Positions 9,224 through 51,801 of a stretch of 64,000 bases of DNA are shown piece after piece. The DNA lies in contig CBDIIB010000005.1 of assembly GCA_965279525.1 (NCBI GenBank), positions 363,998-427,997 on the forward strand, read 5' to 3'. The DNA is from Tagaea sp. Lineage in GTDB: Bacteria > Pseudomonadota > Alphaproteobacteria > CACIAM-22H2. Each line of letters starts with the position of its first letter. The first letter of the stretch is position 1. The translations under genes and the position numbers were made by a program. The notes below the pieces were generated by a model, which searched no databases, had not been told where the DNA came from, and worked only from the letters and a program-made list of their open reading frames with translations.

Positions 9224-9232
9224 GGTCCCGGG

Positions 9233-9265
9233 AAACAGGTTACCACCGGTTACGGTAACCTGTTT
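9233..9265. terminator. Perfect 12-bp inverted repeat AAACAGGTTACC-N9-GGTAACCTGTTT 10 nt after the aceB stop. Terminator-like hairpin with no U-tract, or protein-binding palindrome.
   Basis: Read directly: aaacaggttaccaccggttacggtaacctgttt. Confidence 0.45.
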
Positions 9266-9360
9266 ATCCCGCTGGAATCGCTTGCAGGTAACTTCCGTGC
9301 GCGCGGCAACGTATGACTCCGACGTTCAGCATCGCGTGTGCATGCCATTAATTTCGCGGA

Positions 9361-9395
9361 CGGATCGATGCGACACGCGACGTCGCATCGATCCG
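9361..9395. promoter_or_regulatory. 14-bp perfect inverted repeat CGGATCGATGCGAC-N7-GTCGCATCGATCCG
   Basis: Read directly in the low-GC intergenic islet. Could be an operator or strong hairpin. Confidence 0.5.
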
Positions 9396-9442
9396 TCACG
9401 CAAATCTTGCAGTCATATTCGATTGTCAAAGAGCACGTCCCG

Positions 9443-9468
9443 AGGGTGTGAATATATTTACACACCCT
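9443..9468. promoter_or_regulatory. Inverted repeat AGGGTGTG-aatatattta-CACACCCT with AT-rich centre
   Basis: Read directly. 8-bp arms with a 10-nt AT loop, 200 nt upstream of the 9662 gene. Confidence 0.4.
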
Positions 9469-9470
9469 GC

Positions 9471-9500
9471 AATTGTCAAGATAAATAGCCTATAATATTT
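9471..9500 (+). promoter_or_regulatory. Putative sigma70-like promoter (ttgtca ... TATAAT at 9491-9496) for the 9662 gene
   Basis: Consensus -10 hexamer TATAAT. Upstream TTGTCA has suboptimal 12-nt spacing, so the -35 assignment is uncertain. Confidence 0.3.
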
Positions 9501-9503
9501 CCG

Positions 9504-9518
9504 CCGGGACAAGCCCGG
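9504..9518. repeat. Hairpin CCGGG-acaag-CCCGG, copy 1 of a 15-bp motif repeated at 10526-10540
   Basis: Identical 15-mer ccgggacaagcccgg occurs on both sides of the 9662-10450 gene. Confidence 0.5.
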
Positions 9519-9661
9519 TAAAAGTCCAGCCGGGCAATGCCCAATGCCGCGACTTCCGGAACCATCCCTATGGAAGGATGCCGGATACGGCACGCGCGGA
9601 ATTCGACTTGAATTATCCTTAGAGTGTATATAATTCAGCCGGGTAATCTGAGGTGTGTTAA

Positions 9662-10450
9662 ATGCTGAAGACTGTTTGCGTCATCGGTTCGATGCTGATT
9701 TCCGTGCTGGTACCGCAGTGCCTGGCACAGTCGATCCACGAGCAACCAAATGGCACCCGGATCCTCGGAAGCTTCCAACTCGGCTCGGTAACGGTTCCCC
9801 TGCCGCCGGGAGAGTGGGTCCTGAACGGGCGAGGCGTATTCACTGTGAACGCGTCGACCGGTCCTCTTAAGGTCGGCGAAGCCTATCTGTCCGAGTCGAA
9901 AGACGGCAAGGTGACCCGCATCATCTACGCGCGCGCGAATCTGGGCGGGGAATCGACCGGAGGCGGATGGACTCGCGACAGGAACGTCTGCGACCGGGTC
10001 AACGTGATCCACGCCGAGTTCGACCGGCACTTCAATCCCAAGGAAGCCAAGTGCTGGATGGTGACCCATTTCTTCGATGGAACGCCGAACAATCCGTCCG
10101 ACGCCTTCAGGGAATTCTACGCGTCACTCGCACAAAGCAAGCTCGATACGCCGAAGCTGCGCCTCAGTGCGGTCTATTTCCTGACGGACGCGACGAACTT
10201 CGTCTACGTGAACTACGCGTTCAATCCAGAGATCGTCGGCGTTCCGCTGGGAAGTCTCGAGCGCTGGGATTCGAGCGAATGGAATATCTTGCGAATCAAC
10301 CTGTTCCCCGACCGCGTGAAATTCGCCGGAACGATCAAGTCGTTCGGTGAAGCGATGCTTCCCTTCGTCGAAAAAGGCCTGCAAGGCCGCATCAAGGCCG
10401 GCGAGTACGTTCCCGTCACGATCGAAGGCTGGCCGACCGGCGCGCAGTGA
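9662..10450 (+). CDS. Secreted hypothetical protein (262 aa) of unknown function, with signal peptide and atypical lower GC
   Basis: MLKTVCVIGSMLISVLVPQCLAQS signal, SD-like GAGG upstream. Codon usage is A/T-richer than neighbours. No family recognised. Confidence 0.65.
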   Translation: MLKTVCVIGSMLISVLVPQCLAQSIHEQPNGTRILGSFQLGSVTVPLPPGEWVLNGRGVFTVNASTGPLKVGEAYLSESKDGKVTRIIYARANLGGESTGGGWTRDRNVCDRVNVIHAEFDRHFNPKEAKCWMVTHFFDGTPNNPSDAFREFYASLAQSKLDTPKLRLSAVYFLTDATNFVYVNYAFNPEIVGVPLGSLERWDSSEWNILRINLFPDRVKFAGTIKSFGEAMLPFVEKGLQGRIKAGEYVPVTIEGWPTGAQ

Positions 10451-10519
10451 CCGAGGCAGCCTGCCGCCGGCGGCAGACCAATTCCCGTGATCGGCAGGGT
10501 ACTTCATGCAACCGAACTC

Positions 10520-10558
10520 GTGGATGCCCGGGACAAGCCCGGGCATCCACGGCTTTTG
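10520..10558 (+). terminator. Rho-independent terminator: 13-bp stem GTGGATGCCCGGG-acaag-CCCGGGCATCCAC followed by GGCTTTTGTGATTT
   Basis: Perfect stem-loop plus T-rich tail 70 nt after the stop of the 9662 gene. Contains copy 2 of the ccgggacaagcccgg motif. Confidence 0.7.
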
Positions 10559-10564
10559 TGATTT

Positions 10565-11266
10565 CTACCCGCCCGGCTTCAGCGCCGCCGCCCCCATCAC
10601 GCGGCCATCCGCGCCCTGCACGAGCACGGCGAAGCCGGGGCCGGTTTCGGCCGGCACACGCCATTCGCCGGCGACCGTGCCGGCGACGCCCAGCGTTTCG
10701 ACCGAGCGCACGATGTTGGTGTTGGCAAGTGCCCGCCCGCCATTCTCGCCGGTGGTCACGCGCGTGACGTGGGCGGGCACGAACGAAACGAGCTGCACGC
10801 TGGTGCGTCCCATCCCTTCGACCGGCCCGACCTGCACGACGAGCTCGCCCGCCTCGCGCACGAGCTTCACGTCGACGGTCTGGCGGGCGCGCGCCGCCGC
10901 GATCGCGCGCGCGACGGCCCGGCGGTCGGAGCCGACCATCTCGGCCGTGCCGTCCACGACGGCCTGTGGCGTATAGACGGTGCGCAGGCCCAGCCTGTGC
11001 GCGTAGGCACGCTGGCGGGCCGTGGCCATCGGCGAGGAGAACGGGTCCTTCCAGCCGAGCCGGTCCCAGTAATCGACATGGAACGACAGCGCCAGCACGT
11101 CGTCGCGCCGGGCAAGCTCGCCCAGCAGCAGGTCGGCCGGCGGGCAGGACGAACAGCCCTGCGAGGTGAAAAGCTCGACCACGACCGGCCGGTCGGCCGC
11201 CGAAGCCGCAGGGATGGCGCCCAGGGCCGCAAAGCCTGCGAATGCCGCGAGGATATAGCTGTTCAT
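10565..11266 (-). CDS. DUF1223 domain-containing secreted protein
   Basis: MNSYILAAFAGFAALGAIPAASA signal then ELFTSQGCSSCPPAD motif typical of DUF1223. Start set at internal Met (11266). Confidence 0.7.
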   Translation of the reverse strand: MNSYILAAFAGFAALGAIPAASAADRPVVVELFTSQGCSSCPPADLLLGELARRDDVLALSFHVDYWDRLGWKDPFSSPMATARQRAYAHRLGLRTVYTPQAVVDGTAEMVGSDRRAVARAIAAARARQTVDVKLVREAGELVVQVGPVEGMGRTSVQLVSFVPAHVTRVTTGENGGRALANTNIVRSVETLGVAGTVAGEWRVPAETGPGFAVLVQGADGRVMGAAALKPGG

Positions 11267-11351
11267 GCCTTCCGGTTCGCGCGTCCGGCCCCCGGAGTTA
11301 CGGGCGATTCCCTTTGAATCTCCCCGGAAAATGCGGTGAATATCGGCCGGC

Positions 11352-12296
11352 ATGACCGACCCCATCCCCAGCCGCCTCAACCGCACCGAACTGGCCGTTC
11401 CGGCCAGCCGGCCCGAGCTGTTCGCCAAGGCGGCCCGCTCGGCCGCCGACGTCGTGTTCCTCGATCTCGAGGACGCGGTCGCCCCGGGCGACAAGGCCAA
11501 GGCGCGCAAGAACGCGGTCGAGGGGCTCAACGACATCGACTGGGAGGCGGTCGGCAAGACCGTTTCCGTGCGCGTCAACGGCTTCGACAGCGAATGGCTC
11601 TACCGCGATCTCGTCGATCTGGTGGAGAAGGCCGGCGACCGTCTGCACATGATCATGCTGCCCAAGGTCACGCGGCCCGAGGAGGTCATCGCGGTCGATC
11701 TGTGGATCTCGCAGATCGAGCGCGCGAAGAAACTCACGCGGCGCATCGGGCTCGAACTGCTGGTCGAGTCCGCGCAGGGCATCGCCAATGCCGAGGCGAT
11801 CGCTTCGGCAAGCAGCCGGACCGAATCGCTCGTGTTCGGCGTGGGCGATTTCGCCGCATCCACCGGCATGCGCACGACCAATATCGGCGGCCTGTCGCGC
11901 CAGTACATGGTCGAGGGGCGCATGGCCGACATCTGGCACTACGCGCTCGCCCGCCTTGTCGTGGCCGCGCGTGCCGCCGGCAAGCGGCCGATCGACGGAC
12001 CTTATGCCGATTTCAACGATTCGATCGGCATGAAGGAATCGGCCCTGCGTGCGGCGGCCCTGGGCTGCGAGGGCAAGATGGTGATCCACCCCTCGCAGAT
12101 CGACGAAGTCAACGAGGTCTTCACGCCCGACCCGATGGAGATCGAGCGCGCGCGCGCGATTCTGCTGGCCATGGAAGAGGCCGCCGCGAAGGGCCAGGGT
12201 GCGGCCGCCTTCGAGGGCCGGCTCATCGACATCGCCTCGATCCGCCAGGCCGAGGCGCTGGTCGCCAAGGCGGCCCGGATCCGCTCGGGCATGTAG
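11352..12296 (+). CDS. HpcH/HpaI-CitE family CoA-ester lyase (citrate lyase beta / malyl-CoA lyase-thioesterase-like)
   Basis: 314 aa, ELAVPASRPELFAKAARSAADVVFLDLEDAV and EGKMVIHPSQI motifs of CitE-like lyases. Confidence 0.75.
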   Translation: MTDPIPSRLNRTELAVPASRPELFAKAARSAADVVFLDLEDAVAPGDKAKARKNAVEGLNDIDWEAVGKTVSVRVNGFDSEWLYRDLVDLVEKAGDRLHMIMLPKVTRPEEVIAVDLWISQIERAKKLTRRIGLELLVESAQGIANAEAIASASSRTESLVFGVGDFAASTGMRTTNIGGLSRQYMVEGRMADIWHYALARLVVAARAAGKRPIDGPYADFNDSIGMKESALRAAALGCEGKMVIHPSQIDEVNEVFTPDPMEIERARAILLAMEEAAAKGQGAAAFEGRLIDIASIRQAEALVAKAARIRSGM

Positions 12297-38588: not shown

Positions 38589-39317
38589 TCAGGCAACGAG
38601 AACGACTCCCGAAGCCAGCAGCAATCCCAAGACGATACGCCGGAACGTCGCGTCGTCGACGCGCGCATAGAGCCGGAGGCCGATCCACACGCCCAGCGCC
38701 ACGGCCGGCAGGCACCACAGGAAATCCGAAACCGCCTGCGGGCCGATCCCGCCGTCGAAATAAAGATAGACGAGCGCCACGGCCTGCATGACGAAGATGT
38801 AAGGCTGGTAGACGCCGCGCTGCTCGTTTTTCGACCAGCCGCGCAGGCCGGTCCACGGCGTGGGGATCGCCCCCGACAGGCCGCCGAGCCCGCCCAGCAC
38901 CCCGCCGACGAAGCCGACCGCCCCGTCGAGCGGTGCCCCGCCGAAACGGATCGGCCGCGGCACCCCGCGCGCCAGCATGTAGATGGCATAGACGACGAGG
39001 AAGACGCCGATCGCGCGCTTCAGCGGCTCGGGCGACACGCTCTGCAGCAGCAGCACGCCGAGCGGGATGCCGATCACGCCACCGATCAGGAACGGGGCGA
39101 GCCGACGCCAGTCGATCGCGTCGCGCACGCCGAGAATCGAGAAGGTCTGCGCCAGCAGGCTCGCCGCCAGCACCAGGGGGGTGGCATCAACCGGCAGGCG
39201 CAGATGCAGATAGACCGCCGACGCGATCAGCGCGAAGGCGAACCCCGCCAGCCCCGACGCGATGGCCGCCACGAAAGACGCGAGCATCAGCCAGACTTCG
39301 CTCGGCACTTCGTTCAT
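38589..39317 (-). CDS. TauE/SafE family sulfite exporter (DUF81)
   Basis: 242 aa, 7-8 TM segments with Gly-rich repeats (GGVIGIPLGVLLL / GGVLGGLGGLSGAIP). Start overlaps the SdhC-like stop. Confidence 0.75.
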   Translation of the reverse strand: MNEVPSEVWLMLASFVAAIASGLAGFAFALIASAVYLHLRLPVDATPLVLAASLLAQTFSILGVRDAIDWRRLAPFLIGGVIGIPLGVLLLQSVSPEPLKRAIGVFLVVYAIYMLARGVPRPIRFGGAPLDGAVGFVGGVLGGLGGLSGAIPTPWTGLRGWSKNEQRGVYQPYIFVMQAVALVYLYFDGGIGPQAVSDFLWCLPAVALGVWIGLRLYARVDDATFRRIVLGLLLASGVVLVA

Positions 39318-39676
39318 GCCGCCATCACGTTGAACGCGAACAGCAACCCCGCCGCGATCGCGAAACCGGCACTGGCGGCGACGGCCGTCTTCTGCCGGTC
39401 GCTCCACGGCAGGAACTCGACCGCCAGCAGACGCACGCCGCCGGCCATGTGCGCGGCGAGCAGCACGACGAGACCGGTCTCGGCGAACTTGACCAATGCG
39501 TTGTCGGTCCAGCGCAGCATGCCGTCCAGTGCGGCCTCGCCGCCGATGGCCGTACCCAGCGCCCAGAAATGCAGCGGCACGAAAAGCGTCAGCGCCAGCC
39601 CGGACAACCGGTGCACGGCAAACGCCCACCACGCGGGGTGCTTGCGGTGCCGAAAAGAGGGGGGCGGCCGGTTCAT
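39314..39676 (-). CDS. Succinate dehydrogenase / fumarate reductase cytochrome b subunit-like membrane anchor (SdhC-like)
   Basis: 120 aa, 3 TM, His-containing HRLSGLAL motif. Confidence 0.6.
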   Translation of the reverse strand: MNRPPPSFRHRKHPAWWAFAVHRLSGLALTLFVPLHFWALGTAIGGEAALDGMLRWTDNALVKFAETGLVVLLAAHMAGGVRLLAVEFLPWSDRQKTAVAASAGFAIAAGLLFAFNVMAA

Positions 39677-40017
39677 GCGAACAGGCCGGCGACCGCGCGC
39701 CAGCCGAACCAGACGAGGAATGCCGCGAACGTGGCGGTCGCCAGATCAAGCGCCGGGCCGCGCCAGCCGAACGTCTCGCGCAGGATGGCGCGCAGGCCGA
39801 CGGGGGCATGGACCGCGACCGCGAGAACGAACAGGCCGTAGAACAACGCCAGGCCGAACGAACCGCGCGTGCGCGACAGGATCTCGGCGGCCGTCAGCCC
39901 GCCGCGCACCGCATAGAGGATCGTGGCCAGATGCACGAGCACGCACACGGCGAGCACGGCGGCACTGGCGCGTTGCGCCCCCCACAGCAGCGTTTCGGCG
40001 CGCGCGCGAAATCTCAT
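39673..40017 (-). CDS. Succinate dehydrogenase hydrophobic membrane anchor-like subunit (SdhD-like)
   Basis: 114 aa from MRFRARAETLLWGAQRASAAVLAVCVLVHL, 3 TM, overlaps neighbours by 4 nt. Confidence 0.55.
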   Translation of the reverse strand: MRFRARAETLLWGAQRASAAVLAVCVLVHLATILYAVRGGLTAAEILSRTRGSFGLALFYGLFVLAVAVHAPVGLRAILRETFGWRGPALDLATATFAAFLVWFGWRAVAGLFA

Positions 40018-40727
40018 GCCCCGCCCTTCCATGCCGCGCGCAGCGTGGCGCGCTTCAGCCCCGCGATCGACGCGGTGGGGTTGAGCGATTTGGGGCAGTG
40101 CTCGCGGCACGACTGGTGCGAATGGCAGGCATGGCAGCCCGCGTCGCCGGCGACCGCGTCGAGACGCTCGGCGTTGCCGGCATCGCGCACGTCGTTGACC
40201 AGCGTCCACGCGCGGTTGAGGGCGGCGGGCCCGAGATACTCGGCGTTCCACGCCACGAGATCGCAGGCCGAATAGCACACCGCACAGCCGATGCACTCGA
40301 TGCCCGCGTCGGCGGCTTTTCGTTCGGCACTTGCCGGCTCGACCACCGCGAAATCCGCACCGGCGTCGGCCGAGGGCACGAACCTTCCGCCGGCCTTCGC
40401 CCATTTGTCGAAGAACGGCGCCATGTCGGCGGCGAGATCCTTGATGCGCGGCAGGTTGCGCAGCGGCTCGACCGTCAGCGGGCCGCCTTCCAGACGCGAC
40501 ACGTGCGTGCGGCAGGTCCAGCGAGGCTTGCCGTTTACCGTCATCGCGCACGAGCCGCACATGCCCACGCGGCACGCGAATCGGTACGAGAGCGTCGGGT
40601 CGAGCTTGCGCTGGATATATGTGACCACGTCGAGCACGGTCTGGCTCGCGCGGCGCGGAACGGAAAAGGTCTCGAACCTTCCGTCCGCGCCGCCGCGCCA
40701 GATCCGCGCGTCGATCGTGTCGGCCAC
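40014..40727 (-). CDS. Succinate dehydrogenase / fumarate reductase iron-sulfur subunit-like (SdhB/FrdB-like)
   Basis: 237 aa. 2Fe-2S CRVGMCGSCAM. 4Fe-4S CIGCAVCYSAC and CHACHSHQSCREHCP. Confidence 0.8.
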   Translation of the reverse strand: MADTIDARIWRGGADGRFETFSVPRRASQTVLDVVTYIQRKLDPTLSYRFACRVGMCGSCAMTVNGKPRWTCRTHVSRLEGGPLTVEPLRNLPRIKDLAADMAPFFDKWAKAGGRFVPSADAGADFAVVEPASAERKAADAGIECIGCAVCYSACDLVAWNAEYLGPAALNRAWTLVNDVRDAGNAERLDAVAGDAGCHACHSHQSCREHCPKSLNPTASIAGLKRATLRAAWKGGA

Positions 40728-40734
40728 GAAGGGC

Positions 40735-41943
40735 CTAGGCGCTCTGGTAGAGCTTCGTCATCACGAATTCGCGATGCCCGAGGGCCTCGGCGCAGGTGTA
40801 GCGGCCGTTGCACACGCGGATCATCACGTCGATCAGACGGTCGCCCGCCTCATCGAGATCCATCTCGCGGCGCAGGATGCCGGAGACGTCGAGATCGATA
40901 TGCTCGGGCATCTCGCGCGCGGTCTTCGGGTTCGCCGTGAGCTTGATGACCGGCTCGATCGGGTTGCCGATGACGTTGCCCTGCCCCGTCGGGAACAGGT
41001 GCACGACGAAACCGGCGGCCGCCTGCAGGGTCACGCATTCGGCCGCGGCCGACGACGTGTCCATGAAGTAGAGACCTGCCCCCTTCTTGGGCATCTCGGC
41101 GGGGGCGAGCACGTCCACGTACTTCGTCTTGTGGCCGATCTTCTGGAAATTGCCGAAGGCCTTTTCCTCGATCGTCGTCAGGCCGCCCGCGATGTTGCCC
41201 TTGGTCGGCTGGGATTCCGACAGGTCGCTCGTCTTGAAGCGGTTGATCATGTCCTGGTAGGCGTTGAAGATCGTCATGAACTTGTCGGCGGTCTTCTTGT
41301 CGACCGCGCGCTTGACCATCTCCTTCTCGGCCCCGGTCAGCTCCGAGGTCTCGCCAAAGCACGTGGTGGCACCCAGCGGATCGACCTTGTCGATGAGGTT
41401 GCCGACCGTCGGGCACGAGGCGAGGCCCGACGTGGTGTCGGACTCGCCGCACTTGGTCGAGACCCACAGCTCCTCGATCGTGCACTGCTCGCGCTGCTTC
41501 TCGGTCGCCCACATGACGAACTGCTGCGCCACGCGGCTGGCGGCCTCGATCGTGCGCAGGTCGCCGTTGCCTTCGATGGCGAAGCCCTGCACGGGCTTGC
41601 CGGTCTTGGCGATGCCTTCGACCACGCGGCCCGTCCAGCCCGGCTCGATGCCGATGACGACGACGGCCGCGACGTTGGCGTTGCAGCCGGTGCCGATCAG
41701 CGTGCGGAAGTGGAGTGCGAGATCCTCGCCGAACTGCAGGCGCCCGTAGGCGTGCGGCAGCGCCATCGTGCCCTTGATGTTGTTGGCGACGGCTTCGGCC
41801 GCCGCGTTCGACAGGTCGTCGAGCGGCAGGATGATGACGTGGTTGCGGATGCCGACACGCCCGTTTTCGCGGCGATAGCCCATGAAGGGCAGCTTGCCGG
41901 TGTTCTTCGAGCGCTTCTTGATGATCGCGGGGGCCTTGGCCAT
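40735..41943 (-). CDS. UxaA-family dehydratase large subunit (altronate hydrolase C-terminal domain. SuyB-like (2R)-sulfolactate sulfo-lyase beta).
   Basis: 402 aa, UxaA C-terminal catalytic domain only. Paired with a separate SAF-domain small subunit upstream, as in SuyAB. Confidence 0.65.
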
Positions 41944-41956
41944 GTCGATCTCTCCC

Positions 41957-42241
41957 TTACCAGCGCTTGGTTTTCATGTTGTGGATATGGACGTGGTCGC
42001 CCTTCTTGGTATCCGCGACGACCTTGCCGATGTCGTGCCCGTACTTGATCACGGTGTCGCCCTTCTTGAGGTCGACCATCGCGATCTTGTGGCCGAGCGG
42101 AATGGCCTTGAGCGCCTTCACGCGCACGGTCCCGTCGCCTTCCATGAGCCAGCCTTCGAGGGCGGCACCCGGCTTGACGGTTTCGACGACGATGACACCG
42201 ACGGTGTCCTTCTTGTCGTGGACGATGAATTGGGTCGCCAT
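41957..42241 (-). CDS. SAF-domain small subunit (UxaA N-terminal domain. SuyA-like sulfo-lyase alpha).
   Basis: 94 aa [30 protein letters not shown]... SAF/flagellar-FlgA-like fold immediately upstream of the UxaA large subunit. Confidence 0.65.
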
Positions 42242-42337: not shown

Positions 42338-43051
42338 ATGGAAACGCGCCCGCTCTACCGCCAGATCAAGGAAGCGCTGATGCGCCGTCTCGTCGACGGG
42401 CGCTGGCGTGCGGGCGAGCTGATCCCGTCCGAGCATGCGCTCGCATCCGAGCTTGGCGTGAGCCAGGGCACGGTGCGCCGGTCGCTCGACGAGCTGGCCC
42501 GCGCCAACCTCGTCGTGCGCCGGCAGGGCAAGGGCACGTTCGTGGCCGAGCACACGCGCGAGCGCGCCCTGTTCCACTTCTTCCATCTGGTCGGCGACGA
42601 CGGCAAGCGGGCTTTGCCCGGCAGCCGCGTGCTGGCCGTCAAGGCGGGGCCGGCCTCGCGCGAGGAAGCGCGCCGGCTCGAACTTGCCGCCGGCGCGAAA
42701 GTGGTGCGGCTCCATCGCCTGCGCATGCTCGACGGGCGTGCCGCGATCGTCGAGCGCATCGTGCTGCCGGCCACCCTTTATGACGGGATCGAACGGCTCG
42801 ACCGCGCGGGCCTGCCCAACGAGCTCTACAAGCTCTACCAGGACCGCTACGGCGTGTCGGTCGCGCGCGCGGCCGAAAAACTGAAGGCCGCCCCGGCGGG
42901 GCCGGAAGATGCCGCACATCTGGGCCTGCGCAGCGGGGCGGCCGTGCTGGAGATCGACCGGATCGCCTACGCGCTCGACGGCAGGCCCTGCGAATGGCGG
43001 GTATCCCGCTGCGATACGGCCGCCCACCACTACGTTTCCGAAGTGGTCTAG
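42338..43051 (+). CDS. GntR-family transcriptional regulator (HutC/UTRA subfamily)
   Basis: 237 aa. Winged HTH (LIPSEHALASELGVSQGTVRRSLDELA) and UTRA effector domain. Transcribed divergently from the 19-gene operon. Confidence 0.85.
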   Translation: METRPLYRQIKEALMRRLVDGRWRAGELIPSEHALASELGVSQGTVRRSLDELARANLVVRRQGKGTFVAEHTRERALFHFFHLVGDDGKRALPGSRVLAVKAGPASREEARRLELAAGAKVVRLHRLRMLDGRAAIVERIVLPATLYDGIERLDRAGLPNELYKLYQDRYGVSVARAAEKLKAAPAGPEDAAHLGLRSGAAVLEIDRIAYALDGRPCEWRVSRCDTAAHHYVSEVV

Positions 43052-43061
43052 AATCCCGGCC

Positions 43062-44195
43062 ATGGCGAGTCCCGAGGAAATCCGCAACGGCCTGCGCGAA
43101 CTGGATTTCGCGCTCCACGCCGCGTGGAAGCTCGGCCAGCACATGGTCGCGGGCTGGATGCACGAGGCCAACGTGGTGGCGATCTGCGCCGCCCCGGTGT
43201 GGCGCGTGCTGGCCGAAGCGCCCAACGTGCCGCGCATCCTGTCGGGCGGCCGGCACATGGGGGCATCGACCTTCGGAGAGGTGTGCAAGGCGCTGCAGGC
43301 GCGGCCCATCCGCGTCGACCTGCCCTTCACGGTGGGCGAGAACAAGGGCGAGATCGACCCGCAGGTGATCGACCAGGTCGTGCGCCGCTACGGCGTGTCG
43401 CGCTCGGAACACCGCGCCGTCATGCTGTTCGACATCGTCGGTTTCTCGAAGGTCGATCCGCTGGCGCAGATGGCCCAACTTGCCTCGCTCGAATTCTCGA
43501 TCAACAACGCGGCCAAGAAGCTTTCGGAAGCCGGGCTCGACGTGGAACTGGCGCGCTCGACGGTCGGCGACGGGTTCTATGTGTGGAACCGCGCGCGCGG
43601 CTTCGAGGCGGACCTTCGCACCTATGCCGCGATGGTGCTGATCCTGGCCGACAACGCGGTCGCGCGCACGCGCGGCGAGGCGCGCTTCGTGCCGGTGATG
43701 CGCACGTGCTTCTCGATCGGCAGCCACTACGCCTACCACCAGATCGAAGGCACGCGGCCACGCGGCTTCGAATATCTCGTGGGCGAGGTGACGATCCAGC
43801 TCGCGCGCCTGATCGGCAAGGCCCTCGCCAACCAGGTCTGCATCGGCAGCTTCGTGCGGCCGACCGAGCCGCCGGTCGTGCGCAACCTCGACACGATCCT
43901 GTTCCTGGCGCGCGCCGAAAAGCTGCTCGAGAAGCTGCAGGGCCTGTCGATCGGCGGCTACGCGATTTCCCGCGTGCGCAGCCAGGTCACCGGCGGCAAA
44001 GTCGGCGAGGCGACGCTGCCGGTGGTCATGCACCGCATCGTCGACAAGCACGGCTACAACCACGACCTGTTCAACGCGCGCGTGCTGGTCCAGCGCGACG
44101 AGACCGACCCGATCGTCGTGGGATTGAAGCCCGAGGATCTGGGCGAGTTCGAGGCGGCGGCATTGCCTTACAGGCTGCCCGATCCGGCGGCCTGA
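43062..44195 (+). CDS. Hypothetical protein with divergent class-III nucleotidyl-cyclase homology (CHD)-like core
   Basis: 377 aa. RAVMLFDIVGFSKV and TVGDGFYVWN resemble CHD beta1 (FxDIxGFT) and the metal/transition-state GDGxxAxF motifs. No other domain recognised. Confidence 0.45.
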   Translation: MASPEEIRNGLRELDFALHAAWKLGQHMVAGWMHEANVVAICAAPVWRVLAEAPNVPRILSGGRHMGASTFGEVCKALQARPIRVDLPFTVGENKGEIDPQVIDQVVRRYGVSRSEHRAVMLFDIVGFSKVDPLAQMAQLASLEFSINNAAKKLSEAGLDVELARSTVGDGFYVWNRARGFEADLRTYAAMVLILADNAVARTRGEARFVPVMRTCFSIGSHYAYHQIEGTRPRGFEYLVGEVTIQLARLIGKALANQVCIGSFVRPTEPPVVRNLDTILFLARAEKLLEKLQGLSIGGYAISRVRSQVTGGKVGEATLPVVMHRIVDKHGYNHDLFNARVLVQRDETDPIVVGLKPEDLGEFEAAALPYRLPDPAA

Positions 44196-45637
44196 CCGGG
44201 GGGTGCTTGCGAGTCGGCGAAGGCGATGCGGACTTTCAGGCCGCACCCCGAATCGCCGTCGGAAAGCGTCAATGTCGCGCCGTGCGACCGGCAAATGTCC
44301 GCGACGATCGCCAGTCCCAGTCCCGAGCCGTGGCGGTCACCCTCACCGCGCGTGGGTATCCGGTAAAATGGTTCGAGGACCCGCTCGCGTTCGGCTGGCG
44401 GAATTCCCGATCCGCTGTCCACGATCTCGATCGCGGCAGCCGGATCATGCAGGATCCGCACGACGACGGACCCGCCCGCCGGCGTGTACCGGATCGCGTT
44501 GTCGACCAGATTGACGATGGCCTCGTGCACGAGGACGGCATTGCCCTGCACGCTCCGCTCGCGGGCCGCCTGGACGTCGAGGGTCATCGCAATCCGCTTC
44601 TTCACGGCGGCCGGCGCGAGTTCGAGGCAGACCTGCCGCGCGATGTCCTCGAGCCGGATCGCGGAAAGCTCGCCGATCGCGCCGACCTGTTCGACACGGG
44701 CCAGGCTGAGAAGCTGGTTGGACAGCCGGACCGCCTGGTCGGTCGTGGCGCCCAGGGCGCGCAGGATGTCCCGCACCGATGCCGGGTCGTCGGCGCGCAG
44801 TGCCAGCTCCGAATTGGTCTTCAGCAGCGTCAGTGGCGTGCGCAGCTGATGCGACGCATCGGCGATGAATCGCCGCTGCCGGTCGATCAGCCGCCGCGAG
44901 ACGGCCATATAGTGGTTGATCGCGTCGATGAGCGGACGCACCTCCTTGTGGACGATGTTCGGATCGATCTGCGCCAGCTCCGTCGGCTCCCTGCGTTCGA
45001 CCTCTTGGCGCAGCCGGACCAGCGGACCGAGTGCAAGCCGCAAGGCGAACAGCGCGAGCAGCGCCTGGACGACGACGAGGAGCGTCAAGCGCCAGAGCGA
45101 GTCCGTCAGGATGTCGCGCGTCAGCAGATTGCGGGCGTCGAGTGTCTCGCCGACCTGGATGAGCGCCATGCCGCGCACGGTGCCGTCATAGATCGGCTGA
45201 TGGAGTGCCGCGACCCGCAGCGCGTGCCCGTCGTAGGTCTCGTCGTAGAAATGCACGAGTGCGGGATACGCGTCCGATCTCGGCGTTCCGGCCGGCACCG
45301 GCGGCAGGTCGCCGTAACCGGAAATGAACTCGCCCGCGATCCCCGTGATCTTGTAGTAGAGGCGCCCCGGCGAATCGGACTCGAATATGTCGAGCGCCAC
45401 GTACGGCACGTCGACGACGACGCGCCCGTCGAGCATCTGGACCCGTTCGGAGATCGCCCGAGCCGTCGCAAGCAGCGTCCTGTCGTAGGCGAAGTTGACC
45501 GCGGCGTGGACGTTTCCGTAGATCACGATCGAATTCACGACGATCAGTCCGGCCAGCGGCACAAGCAGCCATCGCATCAGCTGTCCGCGCAGGCTGCCGA
45601 GCGGACGGCGTGGCCCCGTCGCCTTGACGTCAGGCAT
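44168..45637 (-). CDS. Sensor histidine kinase (TctE/QseC-like)
   Basis: 489 aa. N-terminal SLRGQLMRWLLVPL pattern, 2 TM, HAMP. H-box FIADASHQLRTPL. G-boxes DSGSGIP / GSGLGLAIV. Confidence 0.85.
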   Translation of the reverse strand: MPDVKATGPRRPLGSLRGQLMRWLLVPLAGLIVVNSIVIYGNVHAAVNFAYDRTLLATARAISERVQMLDGRVVVDVPYVALDIFESDSPGRLYYKITGIAGEFISGYGDLPPVPAGTPRSDAYPALVHFYDETYDGHALRVAALHQPIYDGTVRGMALIQVGETLDARNLLTRDILTDSLWRLTLLVVVQALLALFALRLALGPLVRLRQEVERREPTELAQIDPNIVHKEVRPLIDAINHYMAVSRRLIDRQRRFIADASHQLRTPLTLLKTNSELALRADDPASVRDILRALGATTDQAVRLSNQLLSLARVEQVGAIGELSAIRLEDIARQVCLELAPAAVKKRIAMTLDVQAARERSVQGNAVLVHEAIVNLVDNAIRYTPAGGSVVVRILHDPAAAIEIVDSGSGIPPAERERVLEPFYRIPTRGEGDRHGSGLGLAIVADICRSHGATLTLSDGDSGCGLKVRIAFADSQAPPGQAAGSGSL

Positions 45638-46301
45638 CCGCGATCTCCAGCAGGTAGCCGATGCCCCGCAGGGTGACGATCTTGACGCCGCTGCCTTCAA
45701 GCTTCCGGCGGATGCGGTGGACATAGATCTCGATCGCATCCGGACTGGCGTCCGCATCCGATACGAAAATGCTTTCGAACAGGCGGTCCTTGCTGACCGC
45801 CTTGCCGGGGCGCGCGATCAGGAGCTCGAGCACCGCGCGTTCGCGCGGTGTAAAGACGAGCGGAACGCCCGCGCACGAGAAGGTGCGCTCGACGCTGTCG
45901 AAGACCAGGTTTCCGCACGCGATCAGGGCGGTGCCGTGGCCGTGGCTGCGCCTCAGAAGGGCCTTGGCCCGGGCTTCAAGCTCGGTGAGTTCGAAGGGCT
46001 TGGCGAGATAGTCGTCGGCGCCGAGATTCAGCCCCTGCACCCGGTCCGTGACCGACCCCCGCGCCGTAAGCACGAGGACGGGCGTGTCGCCGCCACGCGC
46101 GCGCAGCCGCTTCAGCACTTCCAGCCCGTCGAGGTCCGGCAGGGTCAGATCGAGTATCGCGAGCGCGTAGCTCTGGTCCCGGAGAAGCGCGTCGGCGTCG
46201 AGGCCATTGTCGGCGCACTCCACGGTAAAGCCGGCGTCGCGAAGCGCTCTCGCGAGCGAACGGGCCAGATCGCCATGGTCTTCCACGAGCAGAATTCGCA
46301 T
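45630..46301 (-). CDS. OmpR-family response regulator (TctD-like)
   Basis: 223 aa, receiver (MRILLVEDHGDLA...LDLTLPDLDG) plus winged-helix output. Confidence 0.85.
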   Translation of the reverse strand: MRILLVEDHGDLARSLARALRDAGFTVECADNGLDADALLRDQSYALAILDLTLPDLDGLEVLKRLRARGGDTPVLVLTARGSVTDRVQGLNLGADDYLAKPFELTELEARAKALLRRSHGHGTALIACGNLVFDSVERTFSCAGVPLVFTPRERAVLELLIARPGKAVSKDRLFESIFVSDADASPDAIEIYVHRIRRKLEGSGVKIVTLRGIGYLLEIADA

Positions 46302-46393
46302 CGATCTTACCCGCGCGCCAGGACGGACACGGTGATAGAGTTATCGCGGCGCCGACCAAGCCTCAAGATTCGTTTCAAAAATGGAGCATCCGG

Positions 46394-47356
46394 GTGGTTA
46401 GCCGACTGATCTGGGCCTTCGTTTGTGCCGTCGTGGCGGCGATCGCCCTTCCGGCGATCGCCCGCGCGGCGGGGCCCGAATGCATAGCGCCTGCCCGGCA
46501 GGGTGGCGGATTCGACCTGACCTGCCGGCTTGCGCAAGCGGGACTTGGCGAAGACGTCGGCTTGCGCGTCACCTACATGCCCGGCGGCGTAGGTGCTGTC
46601 GCGTACAACATGGTCGTCGCGCAGCGAACCGCCGAGCGCGACACGATCGTCGCATTTTCCGGCGGCTCTCTCCTCAATCTCGCCCAAGGCAAGTTCGGCA
46701 AGTTCTCCGGCCGCGAAGTCAGATGGATAGCGGCGATCGGTGCCGACTACGGGATGGTCGCGGTCCGCGCCGACGCGCCCTACCGGAGCCTTCAGGACCT
46801 GATCGGTGCCGTCAAGAAGTCGCCGAGGAAACGCGTGTTCGGCGGCGGCGGCACAGTCGGCAGCCAGGACTGGATGAAGGCGGCCGCACTCCTGCGCATG
46901 GCGAATGTCGACCACAGGGCGTTTCCCTACGTCTCGTTCGAAGGCGGCGGCGAGGCATCGACGGCACTGCTGAGCGGACACGTGCAGGTATACACAGGCG
47001 ACGTCTCGGAAGTCGGCCAGCTCTGGCGCGAGGGCCGGATCCGCATCCTCGCGGTCCTTTCCGACACGCGTCTTGCCGGCGAAATGGCGTCGATACCGAC
47101 GGCCCGTGAGCAGGGCTATCCGCTTGCGTGGCCGACCGTGCGGGGGTTCTACATGGGGCCCAATGTCGATCCGGGGGACTACGAGCGTTGGGTCGGACGG
47201 TTCAGGGAAATGCTCGCAAGCGAGAAATTCCGCGACGCCCGGCTTGCCAGCGCTCTCCTCCCGTTCGACAGGACCAGCGACGATCTTGCTCAGTATGTCG
47301 AACGCTCGATCGCCGAGTACCGCGAGCTCGCGCGGACATTCGGACTGGCTAACTGA
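46394..47356 (+). CDS. tctC: Tripartite tricarboxylate transporter substrate-binding protein (TctC/Bug family)
   Basis: 320 aa with signal peptide. Bug-family core (GGGFDLTCRL...GGGGTVGSQDW). Confidence 0.8.
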   Translation: MVSRLIWAFVCAVVAAIALPAIARAAGPECIAPARQGGGFDLTCRLAQAGLGEDVGLRVTYMPGGVGAVAYNMVVAQRTAERDTIVAFSGGSLLNLAQGKFGKFSGREVRWIAAIGADYGMVAVRADAPYRSLQDLIGAVKKSPRKRVFGGGGTVGSQDWMKAAALLRMANVDHRAFPYVSFEGGGEASTALLSGHVQVYTGDVSEVGQLWREGRIRILAVLSDTRLAGEMASIPTAREQGYPLAWPTVRGFYMGPNVDPGDYERWVGRFREMLASEKFRDARLASALLPFDRTSDDLAQYVERSIAEYRELARTFGLAN

Positions 47357-47384
47357 CCGGCGCACGAAGGGGCCAACGACGTCC

Positions 47385-48890
47385 CTAACCCACGCGATCG
47401 CGTCGCTCGCTGCGCGCACGCCACCGGTTCACTAGCGCCGGTGCGAACACGATCACCACCGCGCAGCACCAGAGGACCTGGGAAATGCTGCTCTCGACGA
47501 GGATCGAAAGTTCGCCGCCGCTGATCGCCAGCGCGTTGCGCAGGTTCTTCTCCGCGACGTCGCCGAGAACGAAGCCGAGGACGATGGGAGCCAGGTCGAA
47601 CTCCAGCTTCCGGGCGAGATACCCGAACACGCCGACCCCGAGCATCAGGACGATCGAGAATACGCTCGAATAGGCGCTGTAGACGCCGAGGAACGACAGC
47701 ACGAGGATGCCCGGCAGCAGGACCCAGTTGGGGACGGTCAGCATGCGCACGAACAGGCCGATCATCGGCAGGTTCATCAGCAGCAGGATCACGTTGCCGA
47801 TATACATCGACGCGATGAGTCCGCCCGCCAGTTCGGGTCTGTCGGTGAAGAGCTGCGGCCCGGGCATGATGTTATAGAGCATCAGGGCGCCCAGCATCAC
47901 CGCGGTGGTCCCGCTGCCGGGTACGCCCAGCGTGAGCATCGGGACGAACGCGCCGCCGGCGGCCGCGTTGTTCGCGGCCTCGGGGGCGGCAAGCCCGCGT
48001 ACGTCGCCCTTGCCGAACGTGCCACGGTCGAGCAGCCGCTTTTCGGTCGTGTAGGAGATCGCGCTGGCGACCGACGCGCCGGTCCCGGGCAACACGCCGA
48101 CGACGAAGCCGATCCCGGTCGAGCGCAGGGTCGGCCAGATGCAGGCGCGCAGGTCTGCCCAGCTTGGAAAGCCCTTCCCGACCTTGACCGGCTTCAGGCG
48201 GCCGTGGAATTCCTTCTCGAGCATCAGCAGGACCTCGCTGATCGAGAACAGGCCGATCACCAGGATGATGAACTCGATCCCGTCGTAGAGTTCCGGCTCG
48301 TCGAACGTGAAGCGGTAGGCACCGGAGGTCGGATCGAGCCCGATCGTGGCGAGCATGAGGCCGATCGTGCAGCCGATCATCGTCTTGACCGGCTCGGCAC
48401 CGACCATCGAGCTCAACGTCGCGAACGCGAACACCATCAGCACGAAGTACTCGGCCGGTCCGAAGCCGATCGCGAGTTTTCCGAGCAGCGGCGCGAAGAG
48501 CGTCAACCCGACGACCGCGAGCATTCCGCCGACGAACGAACTGATGGCGCTTATCGCCAGCGCCTCCGCGGCACGCCCCTGCCGCGCCATCGGATAGCCG
48601 TCGAGTGCCGTCATCACGGCACCGGCATCGCCGGGTACGTTCAGCAGGATCGATGATATCCGACCGCCGTATTCGGCGCCGTAATAGATGCCGGCGAGAA
48701 GAATCATCGTGCTCTCGGCCGGCACGCCGAGGGTGTAGAGAAGCGGCAGCAGCAGCGCGATTCCGTTGATCGGCCCGATCGCGGGCAGAGCGCCGACGAT
48801 CGTGCCGAGGAAGCAGCCGGCAAGCCCGTAGAGCAGATTCTGCCACTGGAGGGCGACGCCGAATCCGGTCCAGAGATAGTCGAGCGACAT
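47385..48890 (-). CDS. tctA: Tripartite tricarboxylate transporter permease TctA
   Basis: 501 aa polytopic membrane protein with TctA family sequence ([10 protein letters not shown]...[15 protein letters not shown]). Confidence 0.85.
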
Positions 48891-48893
48891 CGT

Positions 48894-49364
48894 TCAGCTC
48901 CCGAATCCGAATCCGAGCGGCAGCGGAACGCCGAACACGCCGGTGAAAAGGCCATACCAGATCGCCGCATTCGCGACGCCGACGGCAATGGCCTGCCGAT
49001 AGGTCGCGCGAAAGAGCAGCGCCACGCCGCCGCACAGAAGGAATGTGGCGACCGGAAAGCCCGCGATCGTGTAGAGGGCCGCCGTCCCGAAGCTCAAGCC
49101 CAGCAGCACCCCGAGCTTCCCCGCAAGGGCGCCCTTCGGCCATGGCTCGGCAAGGCCCGGCCGATACGCGTACCAGATCGACAGGGCCGCCAGCACGAAA
49201 CCCAGAAAGAGCGGGAAGGCGCGCGGCCCCCAGGGATCGGACGAGAAGCCGTATTCGATGTTGGCGGCGAAAAGGCAATAGACGAGCGCGAAAGCCAGCA
49301 GCGCAAGTCCGGGAATCCGCCGCGCGCCACCGACCGGGCCGGTCTGGCCGTGATTGTTTTCCAA
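48894..49364 (-). CDS. tctB: Tripartite tricarboxylate transporter small membrane subunit TctB
   Basis: 156 aa, 4 TM, located between tctA and tctC. Confidence 0.7.
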   Translation of the reverse strand: MENNHGQTGPVGGARRIPGLALLAFALVYCLFAANIEYGFSSDPWGPRAFPLFLGFVLAALSIWYAYRPGLAEPWPKGALAGKLGVLLGLSFGTAALYTIAGFPVATFLLCGGVALLFRATYRQAIAVGVANAAIWYGLFTGVFGVPLPLGFGFGS

Positions 49365-49442
49365 GGCAGTCTTCCTTCCCGCTGCGCCGTCGCCGGCCGG
49401 GGCCCCGTTCGCGGGCCCGGCCGGCCGGTCCGCACAGGCCCG

Positions 49443-50408
49443 TTAGAGCCCGGCTTCCTTTGCCAGAAGCTTGAAGCGCGCGACTTCCTCCTTGACGCGG
49501 GCATCGAACGCCGGACCGATCACGGTGTAGGGGAAGAGCCCGCGTGCGGCACGCTCGCGTTCGAACTCGGGAGTCGCGCTCAGCTTCGTCAGCAACTCGG
49601 TCCACCACCGGTAATCCGCGTCGCTGACCTTGGGCCCGACATAATAGCCGCGCCACACGGTCCAGATCGCGTCGTAGCCCTGCTCGCGCGCTGTCGGAAC
49701 AGCCGCAAGATCGCCGGGCAGACGCTGTTCGGACATCACGGCAAGAATCCGCACCTTGCCGGCCTTGTGGTGCTGGCCCATCTCGCCCGCGTCGCCCGAC
49801 GCGATCTTGATGTGACCGCCCTGCAGCGCCGTCATGACGGCACCGCCGCCTTCGAGCGCCGCATATCGCATCGTGCGGGGTGCCACGCCGACGGCTCTCG
49901 CGAGAACAGCCGCCTTCATCCAGTCCTGGCTGCCGACGGCACCGCCGCCGCCGACCGGCAGGCTGCCCGGATTCTGCTTGAAGGCCTGCATGAGTTCGCC
50001 GAGCGACTTGTAGGGGCTGTCGGCTGCGACCGCGATCACGCCGAAATCCGCGCCGAGGCCGGCGACCCAGCGCACGGCGTTCTCGTCGTGGCGTCCGAAC
50101 TTGCCCTGCGCGAGCAGCAGCGCCGAACCGGTCGACGCGGCGATGACAAGGCCCGGATCGCCCGGGCGCGTGCCGATGACGTGGTTGTACGCGACCGCCC
50201 CGACGCCGCCTTCCATGAAGGTGACGGCCATCGGCTTGTCGATCAGCTTGGCGGCAAGCAGCGAGTTTCCGACGAGCCGGCAGGTGAGGTCGAAGCCCCC
50301 GCCCGGCTGCGCGCCGGCGAGGCATTCGGTCTTGTCGGGTGCGGCTGCGACCGGCAGCGGACCCGCGAACATCAGAATGGCGGCGGCAGCGGCGTATATG
50401 GAACGCAT
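49443..50408 (-). CDS. tctC: Tripartite tricarboxylate transporter substrate-binding protein (second TctC paralog)
   Basis: 321 aa. Clearly a paralog of the 46394 protein (ECLAGAQPGGGFDLTCRL... vs ECIAPARQGGGFDLTCRL...). Confidence 0.8.
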   Translation of the reverse strand: MRSIYAAAAAILMFAGPLPVAAAPDKTECLAGAQPGGGFDLTCRLVGNSLLAAKLIDKPMAVTFMEGGVGAVAYNHVIGTRPGDPGLVIAASTGSALLLAQGKFGRHDENAVRWVAGLGADFGVIAVAADSPYKSLGELMQAFKQNPGSLPVGGGGAVGSQDWMKAAVLARAVGVAPRTMRYAALEGGGAVMTALQGGHIKIASGDAGEMGQHHKAGKVRILAVMSEQRLPGDLAAVPTAREQGYDAIWTVWRGYYVGPKVSDADYRWWTELLTKLSATPEFERERAARGLFPYTVIGPAFDARVKEEVARFKLLAKEAGL

Positions 50409-50508: not shown

Positions 50509-51801
50509 CTACTTGATCCCTAGGCGCACCTTCAGGCGCGGATCGACGACGGCATCGGCAAGGTCGATTCCGGCGAACTGTTCCTCGTCGACCGTCACGT
50601 CGCGGATGTCGATGCCCGATACGCCCGCACCTGCGAACTTGGCACCACGCAGGTCGGCCGCGCGCAGCACCGCCTTGTCGAGCTTGGCCGCGAACGACCG
50701 GCCGGCGGCGAGCGGCAGCGGCGAGAAGTCGCAGTCGCGCAGGTCGGCGCGCGTGAGCTTGGCACCCGCGAGACTGACGCCGCGCATGTCGGAACCGGCC
50801 AGCTTGCAGTCGCGCAGGTCGGCCCCGGCAAGACGTGCACCCTGGAGCTGGCAGCCGCGCATGTCGAGGCCGACGAAGATCGCGCCCTCCGCGCGCAGGC
50901 CCACCAGAAGCTGGCCGCTGAGCTTGGGCAGCTTGCGGCAGTCGTAGCCGGAAAGATCGGCGACCTTGCCTTCGGCCCCGCCGGTCTGCGCCCACGCGGC
51001 ATGCAGGCGCAGCAGTTCCTCAGGCGCCACACCCTGTTCGGACAGCGCCTTGCCGGCGAGCTTGTCGTCGACGACATCGACCAGCGTGGCGCCGTCGAGC
51101 ACGGCGTTGGAAAGCTTGGTGCCGGTCATCACGGCGCCGTCGAGCGAAGCGCCCGTGCAGTTGGCGCCGGTGAGATCCGCACCCGCGAGATTGGCGCCGA
51201 CGAGCTGGGCCTTCTGCAGGTTGGCGCGCGCGAGCTTGCAGTCGCGCATGATCGCGTCGGTGAAATCGGCTTGCCCCGCGAGCATGCCGTCCATCGCGGC
51301 TTCGGAAAGGTTCGCCGCCGCCAGCTTGGCGCCCTGCAGCTCGGTTGCCCCCACCTCGCCCAGCTTCAGCGCATGCAGGTTGCCGGCCCTGTCCTTCTGC
51401 GTGATCGAGCCTTCGCGAAGATCAGCCTGGATGAGGTTGGCGCGCGTCAGGTTCGCCCCGCGCAGGCACGCCCCGCGCAGGTCCGCGCGCATCAGGCTTG
51501 CCCCTTCGAGATCGGCCTCGCGGAAATCGCAGGCGAAGAGCGTGGCGCGGTCGAGCACGCAGTCCGACATCATCGCGCCGCGGAACGAGGCCCCGGTGCA
51601 GTCGGCCTCGGTCAAGTTGGCGCCGGCCATCGCCATGCCGCCGAGATCGGCGAAAGCCAGCATCGCGCGCACGCCGCCGGGCTTGCCCGTGCGGAAGCGC
51701 TCGTGAAGCGCGATCACGTTGGCAAGTTCGGAATGCGACAGCTTCTTGCGCTGGACTTTGGCACTATGGGCCGACAGCATTGCGCCCCCGTTCGCGACCA
51801 C
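50509..51801 (-). CDS. Pentapeptide-repeat protein
   Basis: ~430 aa of A(D/N)LxG-type pentapeptide repeats (ANLTEADCTGASFRGA..., LAGADLTGANCTGASL...). Confidence 0.8.
   Translation of the reverse strand: MVANGGAMLSAHSAKVQRKKLSHSELANVIALHERFRTGKPGGVRAMLAFADLGGMAMAGANLTEADCTGASFRGAMMSDCVLDRATLFACDFREADLEGASLMRADLRGACLRGANLTRANLIQADLREGSITQKDRAGNLHALKLGEVGATELQGAKLAAANLSEAAMDGMLAGQADFTDAIMRDCKLARANLQKAQLVGANLAGADLTGANCTGASLDGAVMTGTKLSNAVLDGATLVDVVDDKLAGKALSEQGVAPEELLRLHAAWAQTGGAEGKVADLSGYDCRKLPKLSGQLLVGLRAEGAIFVGLDMRGCQLQGARLAGADLRDCKLAGSDMRGVSLAGAKLTRADLRDCDFSPLPLAAGRSFAAKLDKAVLRAADLRGAKFAGAGVSGIDIRDVTVDEEQFAGIDLADAVVDPRLKVRLGIK

Follow-up and report, generated by a model that had tools for sequence, protein, structure and literature searches.

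A divergent class III cyclase-like protein family with a frequent pentapeptide-repeat neighbour in Tagaea and other Alphaproteobacteria

Cyclic-nucleotide second messengers come mainly from class III cyclases, and surveys of signalling in bacteria lean on the Pfam model of the catalytic domain of these enzymes. Here we describe a gene from a 64,000-nucleotide (nt) stretch of a Tagaea sp. contig (the window) whose 377-amino-acid (aa) product has the fold of the class III cyclase homology domain (CHD). The protein belongs to a family that is remotely homologous to the CHD, holds a conserved D/D/R(/K) site together with non-canonical residues at the base- and ribose-contacting positions, and begins with a novel N-terminal domain. 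Genes of this family are frequently adjacent to a pentapeptide-repeat gene, and fusions to REC and EAL domains occur among distant members. An earlier, sequence-only reading of the locus had proposed an orphan protein with a divergent class III cyclase-like core, placed between a GntR operon and a TctDE-like two-component system, and had considered a novel cyclase, a degenerate one or a regulatory domain of this fold. The open reading frame (ORF) that it named is real: an ORF spans positions 42909-44195 of the forward strand, the ATG at 43062 is internal to it and opens a 377-aa reading frame, and the N-termini of the homologues align at this ATG, so that the gene is assigned to 43062-44195. 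The gene and the features of its product are as follows.

43062..44195, forward strand: gene of the cyclase-fold (CHD-like) family, encoding 377 aa, with its stop codon; from the ORF, the homologues and the structural model.
43062..43397, forward strand: N-terminal domain, residues 1-112, with no known fold relatives; invariant W22, G25, W32, R64, R81 and R109-Y110.
43419..43859, forward strand: CHD core, residues 120-266 (beta1-beta6), confidently aligned to canonical class III cyclase domains.
43416..43454, forward strand: motif AVMLFDIVGFSKV, residues 119-131, aligned by hhalign to FSDIVGFT of CyaC; the phosphate-binding loop follows D124.
43431-43433, forward strand: D124, putative first metal-binding Asp, at the end of beta1 (strand 112-125).
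43557..43589, forward strand: motif STVGDGFYVWN, residues 166-176, aligned to KFVGDAIMA of CyaC; beta2-beta3 hairpin, strands 163-168 and 171-176.
43569-43571, forward strand: D170, putative second metal Asp (GD hairpin), with G169-D170 at the beta2-beta3 turn.
43773..43808, forward strand: Y238...G241-E-V-T-I-Q-L-A-R249, in the register given by hhalign.
43860..44192, forward strand: C-terminal region, residues 267-377, with the remaining cyclase-fold elements and a beta-rich extension, from the secondary structure of the model.

The protein is not an orphan. At E<=1e-3 it has 249 homologues, all ∼377–400 aa long and aligned end to end, none of them with a precomputed Pfam domain. A profile search of 1.84 billion representative sequences yielded 404 representative clusters, 148 of them at E<=1e-30. 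Most homologues are named hypothetical; a few JGI records read ‘class 3 adenylate cyclase’, and these automated names are the sole existing hint of a COG-level similarity for the family. The closest match, a protein from a Tagaea metagenome-assembled genome (MAG), is 98% identical, and the carriers among reference genomes are Rhodospirillales-type Alphaproteobacteria (Tagaea, Ferrovibrio, Thalassobaculum, BAL199 and Azospirillaceae MAGs). Identity among the homologues follows taxonomy, as expected of a core gene passed on vertically, and the genes around family loci are housekeeping or metabolic. Neither Pfam nor NCBIfam holds a curated family that covers these proteins, and the window's protein does not reach the gathering score of Pfam Guanylate_cyc (PF00211). 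One further Tagaea chromosome (locus L064, positions 10001-11033) carries a family gene that is ∼100 nt shorter than its relatives, with the best tblastn segment ending at 10612; a frameshift, a pseudogene or an assembly error is possible there, and the adjoining pentapeptide gene is intact.

Structure prediction places the protein among cyclase folds. AlphaFold2, given only the family alignment and no templates, yields a model with a mean pLDDT of 92.1 and a pTM of 0.87. The model contains the CHD fold, namely the beta-alpha-beta-beta-alpha-beta core with its beta4-beta5 arm, and a Foldseek search with the model matched cyclase folds at E-values down to 6.8e-8. Canonical adenylyl and guanylyl cyclase (AC/GC) domains ranked above Pycsar cyclases in structural comparison, and GGDEF domains ranked below all cyclase domains. 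The aligned lengths span nearly all of the 167–200-residue reference domains, and the cyclase fold therefore reaches well past residue 266. The sequence-only reading had recognised nothing in either terminus; this stands for the N-terminal part, which has no known fold relative, and falls for the C-terminal part, into which the cyclase fold extends. The C-terminal region also holds a conserved DKHG (residues 328-331, nt 44043-44054) and N338, and gave no confident hhalign alignment.

Profile-profile comparison indicates that this likeness of fold is homology. A CHD HMM run over 1.27 Mb of homologue loci found no canonical cyclase. As references we used the PDB cyclase sequences pulled by a consensus bait (5 domains) and 120 PF00211 proteins from a large database, reduced to 21 non-redundant domains. 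Aligned as a shallow family, the homologues gave no significant hhalign match to either set (P 0.066 for the 5 CHDs and P 0.014 for the 21 CHDs). With a deep family alignment of 83 sequences (23–45% identity), the match to the 5 domains reached P 6e-4, and that to the 21 non-redundant PF00211 domains reached P 1.3e-5, with Prob 80.8% over 141 columns. Nine control profiles, one reversed and eight column-shuffled, gave P 0.07–0.61, and a known distant pair, CHD and GGDEF, gave P 8.8e-4 in the same test. The alignment register was identical across three of the profile pairs (those with P 0.066, 6e-4 and 1.3e-5). The family is remotely related to class III cyclase domains, nearer to them than GGDEF is, and lies beneath the reach of searches of a sequence against a hidden Markov model (HMM). 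The proposal of a divergent cyclase-like core is thereby borne out. Its author had held that a lack of any CHD hit in profile searches would tell against it; such a lack was found for sequence-versus-HMM searches only, and profile-profile comparison finds the CHD.

Both strings on which the proposal rested are present at residues 119-131 and 166-176. They lie at the end of beta1 and on the beta2-beta3 hairpin, are ∼90% conserved and align to the metal-Asp motifs of cyclases, so that their resemblance to these motifs is not chance. D124 and D170 align to CyaC residues that we take to be D1017 and D1061. Conservation was counted in 89 deep relatives of 23–45% identity. Position 124 is Asp in 92% and Glu in 7% of these; D170, which the sequence-only reading had singled out for checking as the second metal Asp, is kept in 91%, R249 in 90%, and K329, the lysine of DKHG, in 86%. 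Across the deep family G241 is found in 100% and T244 in 93%; R234 is invariant among close relatives and is not conserved in the deep family. In the model R249 stands on the helix that follows the long beta4-beta5 hairpin and is the putative transition-state Arg.

The residues expected to read the substrate, for which a check had likewise been proposed, are non-canonical. S166 sits at the position of the adenine-binding Lys (Glu in guanylyl cyclases), which is Ser or Thr in 92% of the deep relatives, and Y238 sits at the second base-specifying position, Tyr or Phe in 82%. S166 and Y238 correspond neither to the Lys/Asp(Thr) pair that specifies ATP nor to the Glu/Cys pair that specifies GTP. 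From the transition-state pair of the GxxVNxAxR motif the Arg is present as R249, and the ribose-orienting Asn is replaced by I245, at a position that is Ile or Val in 89%. With both the base and the ribose positions altered, the substrate and product need not be ATP and cAMP or GTP and cGMP, and the family becomes a candidate for an unusual substrate or product. In Pycsar cyclases the CHD fold retains both Asp residues, and the specificity residues vary according to substrate (PMC11224242).

The conserved residues also vary together. D/E124, D170 and R249 are all kept in 81 of 90 sequences. The remaining nine (P0166, P0183, P0184, P0196, P0203, P0222, P0232, P0237 and P0266) have lost D170, R249 and K329 jointly, with varied replacements, and have kept the structural residues W175, G241 and N338; they probably form a degenerate, pseudo-enzyme branch of the family. 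The association of the losses is strong (Fisher p ∼1e-10 and ∼1e-9). We read D124, D170, R249 and K329 as one functional site which, judged from its residues, would be intact in the window's protein.

Distant members join the same unit to signalling domains. Two proteins (P0130 and P0133) are REC-EAL-module fusions with intact EAL and DDFGTG motifs, four (P0150, P0151, P0157 and P0162) are module-REC fusions, and one (P0167) is a REC-module fusion. All of them keep the N-domain signature (W22, G25, W32), D124, D170, R249, DKHG and N338. The 375-aa unit therefore behaves as one module that stands at the output-domain place of two-component systems. The module-REC gene of P0150 (locus L070, 4156-6659) shares 4 nt with the end of a gene for a sigma factor of the sigma-70 family. 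Upstream of it lie genes for a HATPase_c-only protein, a KaiC/RecA-like ATPase, a PAS histidine kinase and a GerE response regulator, and this locus may be one of partner switching or sigma-factor control.

The genomic neighbourhood adds a second protein. These fusions and the pentapeptide-repeat partner, which in the window is displaced by an inserted Tct cluster, are absent from the sequence-only reading. The neighbouring features in the window are as follows.

42353..43051, forward strand: GntR/UTRA regulator gene (Pfam GntR and UTRA), ending 10 nt upstream of the CHD-like gene.
44168..50408, block entered without a strand: TctE/TctD two-component system with TctC, TctA, TctB and TctC (Pfam); it separates the CHD-like and pentapeptide genes by 6.3 kb and is not part of the module.
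50518..51780, reverse strand (50521-51780 as delimited by orthology): gene for a 420-aa two-lobed pentapeptide-repeat protein (PF00805, E 1.4e-54, 9 stretches).

The pentapeptide protein of the window also matches PF13599 and PF13576, has HetL, NP275/276, MfpA and Qnr as relatives in the PDB, and is 75% identical to the product of the gene that adjoins the CHD-like gene in locus L006. The neighbours of CHD-like homologues are repeatedly proteins of this kind, 413–424 aa long and rich in A(D/N)LxG repeats, with no precomputed Pfam domain and a mutual identity of 47–54%. A pentapeptide gene lies within 10 kb of the CHD-like gene in 42 of 60 genome loci and directly adjoins it in 41, either directly downstream and convergent (29 loci) or directly upstream and co-directional, 20–63 nt apart (12 loci); in L010 it is 6.3 kb away. 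In genomes with two CHD-like paralogues, each copy has its own pentapeptide partner. We found nothing relevant in the literature that links pentapeptide-repeat proteins with class III cyclases, and the pairing of CHD-like and pentapeptide-repeat genes has not been described before.

Among close relatives, no locus but the window and L010 (Tagaea, 96% identity) has the Tct block between the two genes. The block is absent from L009, L011-L016 and L018, where the pair is 14–22 nt (up to ∼600 nt) apart; in the nearest relatives (L009 and L011-L015, 91–98% identity) the distance is 14–22 nt. The layout in which the CHD-like gene runs convergently against a kinase gene therefore arose by a recent insertion that split a conserved pair of genes. 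The block at 44168-50408 looks in itself like a complete tricarboxylate-transport cluster, newly inserted into the convergent pair.

Two clades carry further genes at these loci. In all 17 Ferrovibrio-type loci (L002, positions 9140-11661, and the Ferrovibrio loci within L029-L067), the CHD-like gene or the pair is followed by two co-directional Pfam-less genes for proteins of 471 aa and 369 aa, with overlapping stop and start and 64–100% identity. We considered whether the Ferrovibrio loci without a pentapeptide gene might be a second paralogue group with the 471-aa and 369-aa proteins as its partner, and rejected this, as every Ferrovibrio locus has both genes downstream and differs from the others only in whether a pentapeptide gene stands in between. 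In Thalassobaculum (L004, 9289-9636, and L005, 6428-6775), a same-strand Pfam-less gene for 115 aa follows the co-directional pentapeptide and CHD-like pair, and there it could supply a third component.

The immediate neighbours named by the sequence-only reading are confirmed by Pfam. The GntR/UTRA gene and the CHD-like gene are probably co-transcribed in the window's lineage: their arrangement is the same in L009-L018 and is not kept in more distant relatives, and a promoter and terminator scan found no promoter-like site in the gap between them. Around the CHD-like gene as a whole, no promoter-like, terminator-like or Rfam feature stood out in these scans and in the Rfam scan. The convergent kinase gene (2CSK_N/HisKA/HATPase_c, 44168-45757, reverse strand) overlaps the 3′ end of the CHD-like gene by 28 nt, and is followed by the gene for a REC/Trans_reg_C regulator and then by TctC, TctA, TctB and TctC. 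Upstream and divergent from the GntR gene lies an unusual cluster on the reverse strand (39314-42241), which comprises the large subunit of an altronate/galactarate dehydratase-like enzyme (40735-41943), a 94-aa ORF with no Pfam match that is possibly the small subunit of this dehydratase (41957-42241), and succinate-dehydrogenase-like Fe-S (40014-40727) and membrane (39314-39676) subunits. No flavoprotein subunit was seen in the stretch 39314-42241, and a TauE exporter comes next.

Taken together, the residues and the predicted structure lead us, with modest confidence, to favour an active, or at least nucleoside triphosphate (NTP)-dependent, enzyme-like signalling module of the cyclase fold. 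It would have three parts: the novel ∼110-residue N-domain, a very divergent CHD with its beta4-beta5 arm, and the beta-rich C-terminal extension. The module may bind a metal-NTP complex, most likely as a homodimer arranged head to tail, as in other class III cyclases; D124 and D170 would hold the metals, and R249 would stabilise the transition state at the alpha-phosphate. The NTP would be either turned into a signalling nucleotide or bound as a switch. The protein would act in signal transduction and, in the window's subfamily, would be functionally coupled to a two-lobed pentapeptide-repeat protein of the adjoining type. We further conjecture, as an idea with a small chance of proving right, that the pair is a nucleotide-signalling module in which a non-canonical enzyme of the cyclase fold produces or senses some nucleotide that is neither cAMP nor cGMP, and controls or is controlled by a two-lobed DNA-mimicking pentapeptide protein. 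If this were true, second-messenger signalling would be tied to a DNA-binding target such as topoisomerase, and a large class of pentapeptide-repeat proteins of unexplained function would gain its first defined biochemical partner.

Several observations weigh against a catalytic, pentapeptide-coupled module. The ribose Asn is Ile or Val in the whole family, and none of the canonical base readers (Lys/Asp or Glu/Cys) is present; such a pattern would fit a domain that is weak or non-catalytic. The nine degenerate members may be one old clade, and the joint loss a single event. That K329 is the canonical phosphate-binding Lys is not backed by the alignment, as the C-terminal columns of the greedy hhalign alignment have zero confidence. 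Sequence searches were empty: the protein had zero matches at E<=10 in Pfam, NCBIfam and the PDB sequences, a search of the PDB sequences with the family profile returned nothing, and none of the 83 deep relatives, scanned singly, matched Guanylate_cyc in Pfam at E<=10. As to the partner, the pentapeptide gene is missing from ∼10 Ferrovibrio loci at an otherwise syntenic site and from the neighbourhood of two deep relatives, so that it is not obligatory, and part of the adjacency signal comes from the shared ancestry of related genomes. Finally, AdvA shows that a CHD-like fold can work without cyclase activity (PMC13060281).

The best of the rival explanations is that the protein is a pseudo-cyclase, with the cyclase fold and perhaps metal or NTP binding and no product, which serves as a nucleotide-sensing switch or scaffold controlling the pentapeptide protein. 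We regard this as a distinct possibility, and a less probable one than an enzyme-like module. The family-wide loss of the ribose Asn, the non-canonical base readers and the example of AdvA, which lacks AC/GC activity (PMC13060281), all speak for it, as does the precedent of a nucleotide-binding regulator of a pentapeptide protein in MfpB and MfpA (PMC3575795); the ATP-binding cyclase-like domain of PDB 6yii would be an analogous case. However, both metal aspartates, the Arg and the beta4-beta5 arm are kept here, unlike in AdvA. It is not obvious what a transition-state Arg would do in a protein that only binds; R249 is nonetheless 90% conserved and co-varies with D170, and the existence of a separate degenerate subgroup implies that D170, R249 and K329 are under selection in the majority. 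We favour the enzyme-like module over a pseudo-cyclase because its transition-state Arg and Asp pair are maintained and co-vary.

Other explanations fare much worse. A Pycsar-type or other anti-phage cyclase, whose cyclic pyrimidine or purine product would signal to an effector of abortive infection, would account for the altered base-specifying residues, which are non-canonical in PycC as well. Against this, PADLOC is empty at E<=10, no TIR, transmembrane (TM) or cyclic-nucleotide-binding effector adjoins the gene in any inspected locus (in the window, Pfam showed no TIR or TM effector among the neighbours), the neighbours are housekeeping or metabolic genes, identity follows taxonomy, and canonical AC/GC domains outscore Pycsar cyclases in the structural search; we consider it very improbable, and the doubt that the sequence-only reading had voiced about Pycsar was justified. 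A relative of GGDEF-type diguanylate cyclases might be suggested by the REC-EAL-module fusions with their intact EAL and DDFGTG motifs. The comparison with GGDEF proposed at the outset lends this no support, however: GGDEF matches rank under all cyclase domains, the GGDEF profile meets the family at P 0.17 over 15 columns by hhalign (against 6e-4 and 1.3e-5 for the 5 and 21 CHD sequences), the family has the CHD-typical beta4-beta5 arm and alpha4 Arg, and in place of a GG[DE]EF motif its sequence reads VGDGFY, all of which makes such kinship highly unlikely. That the motifs resemble those of cyclases by accident in an unrelated protein, as the empty Pfam, NCBIfam and PDB sequence searches and the non-significant shallow-alignment comparisons (P 0.066 and 0.014) might allow, is scarcely credible against a significant profile-profile match with clean controls and motifs that are conserved and placed on homologous structural elements.

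The family is invisible to the Pfam model, with the catalytic metal site kept and with architectures of two-component and cyclic di-GMP signalling, and would represent uncounted signalling capacity. Its conserved pairing offers a testable handle on pentapeptide-repeat proteins, whose roles are mostly unexplained outside the gyrase-protecting Qnr/MfpA group. We consider these results a solid lead of moderate weight for specialists in nucleotide signalling and in pentapeptide proteins, short of a surprising new mechanism.

Comparison with known systems sets the family apart in several ways. The nearest are the class III cyclases of PF00211, represented by CyaC of Spirulina (1wc1), Cya2 (2w01), CyaB (3r5g), Rv1625c and sGC. 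Compared with these, the present family falls under every sequence-HMM threshold, has Ile or Val for the ribose Asn and Ser/Thr with Tyr/Phe for Lys/Asp (or Glu/Cys), always carries a novel N-domain of 110 aa, contains insertions, is extended at the C-terminus by a beta-rich part with DKHG, and has a dedicated pentapeptide-repeat neighbour. Like PycC of the Pycsar systems (7r65, 8jsz and 8jsf), its members combine a CHD fold and a conserved Asp pair with exchanged specificity residues (PMC11224242) in a stand-alone cytoplasmic protein; unlike PycC, they have no adjoining TIR or TM effector, no PADLOC match and a core-genome context, and are structurally less similar to PycC than to AC/GC domains. 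Non-catalytic CHD-like domains are known in AdvA of Acinetobacter baumannii (7sua) and in PA4961. AdvA is a membrane division protein without the catalytic residues, without the dimerisation arm and without AC/GC activity, which has an extra C-terminal helix (PMC13060281), whereas the present family keeps D/D/R as well as the arm and is soluble. For the gene pair, the mycobacterial mfp conservon offers an analogy: the pentapeptide protein MfpA is genetically linked to, and governed by, the nucleotide-binding MfpB (PMC3575795), and here too a pentapeptide protein may stand beside a nucleotide-binding signalling protein. MfpB, however, is a Ras-like GTPase and not a cyclase fold, MfpA is a 183-aa single-lobe dimer compared with the 420-aa two-lobed partner found here, and unlike for MfpA, nothing in this analysis points to a link of the pair with gyrase. 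What is new relative to all of these systems is a cyclase-fold family that has accessory domains of its own, changed residues at the substrate contacts and a partner dedicated to it.

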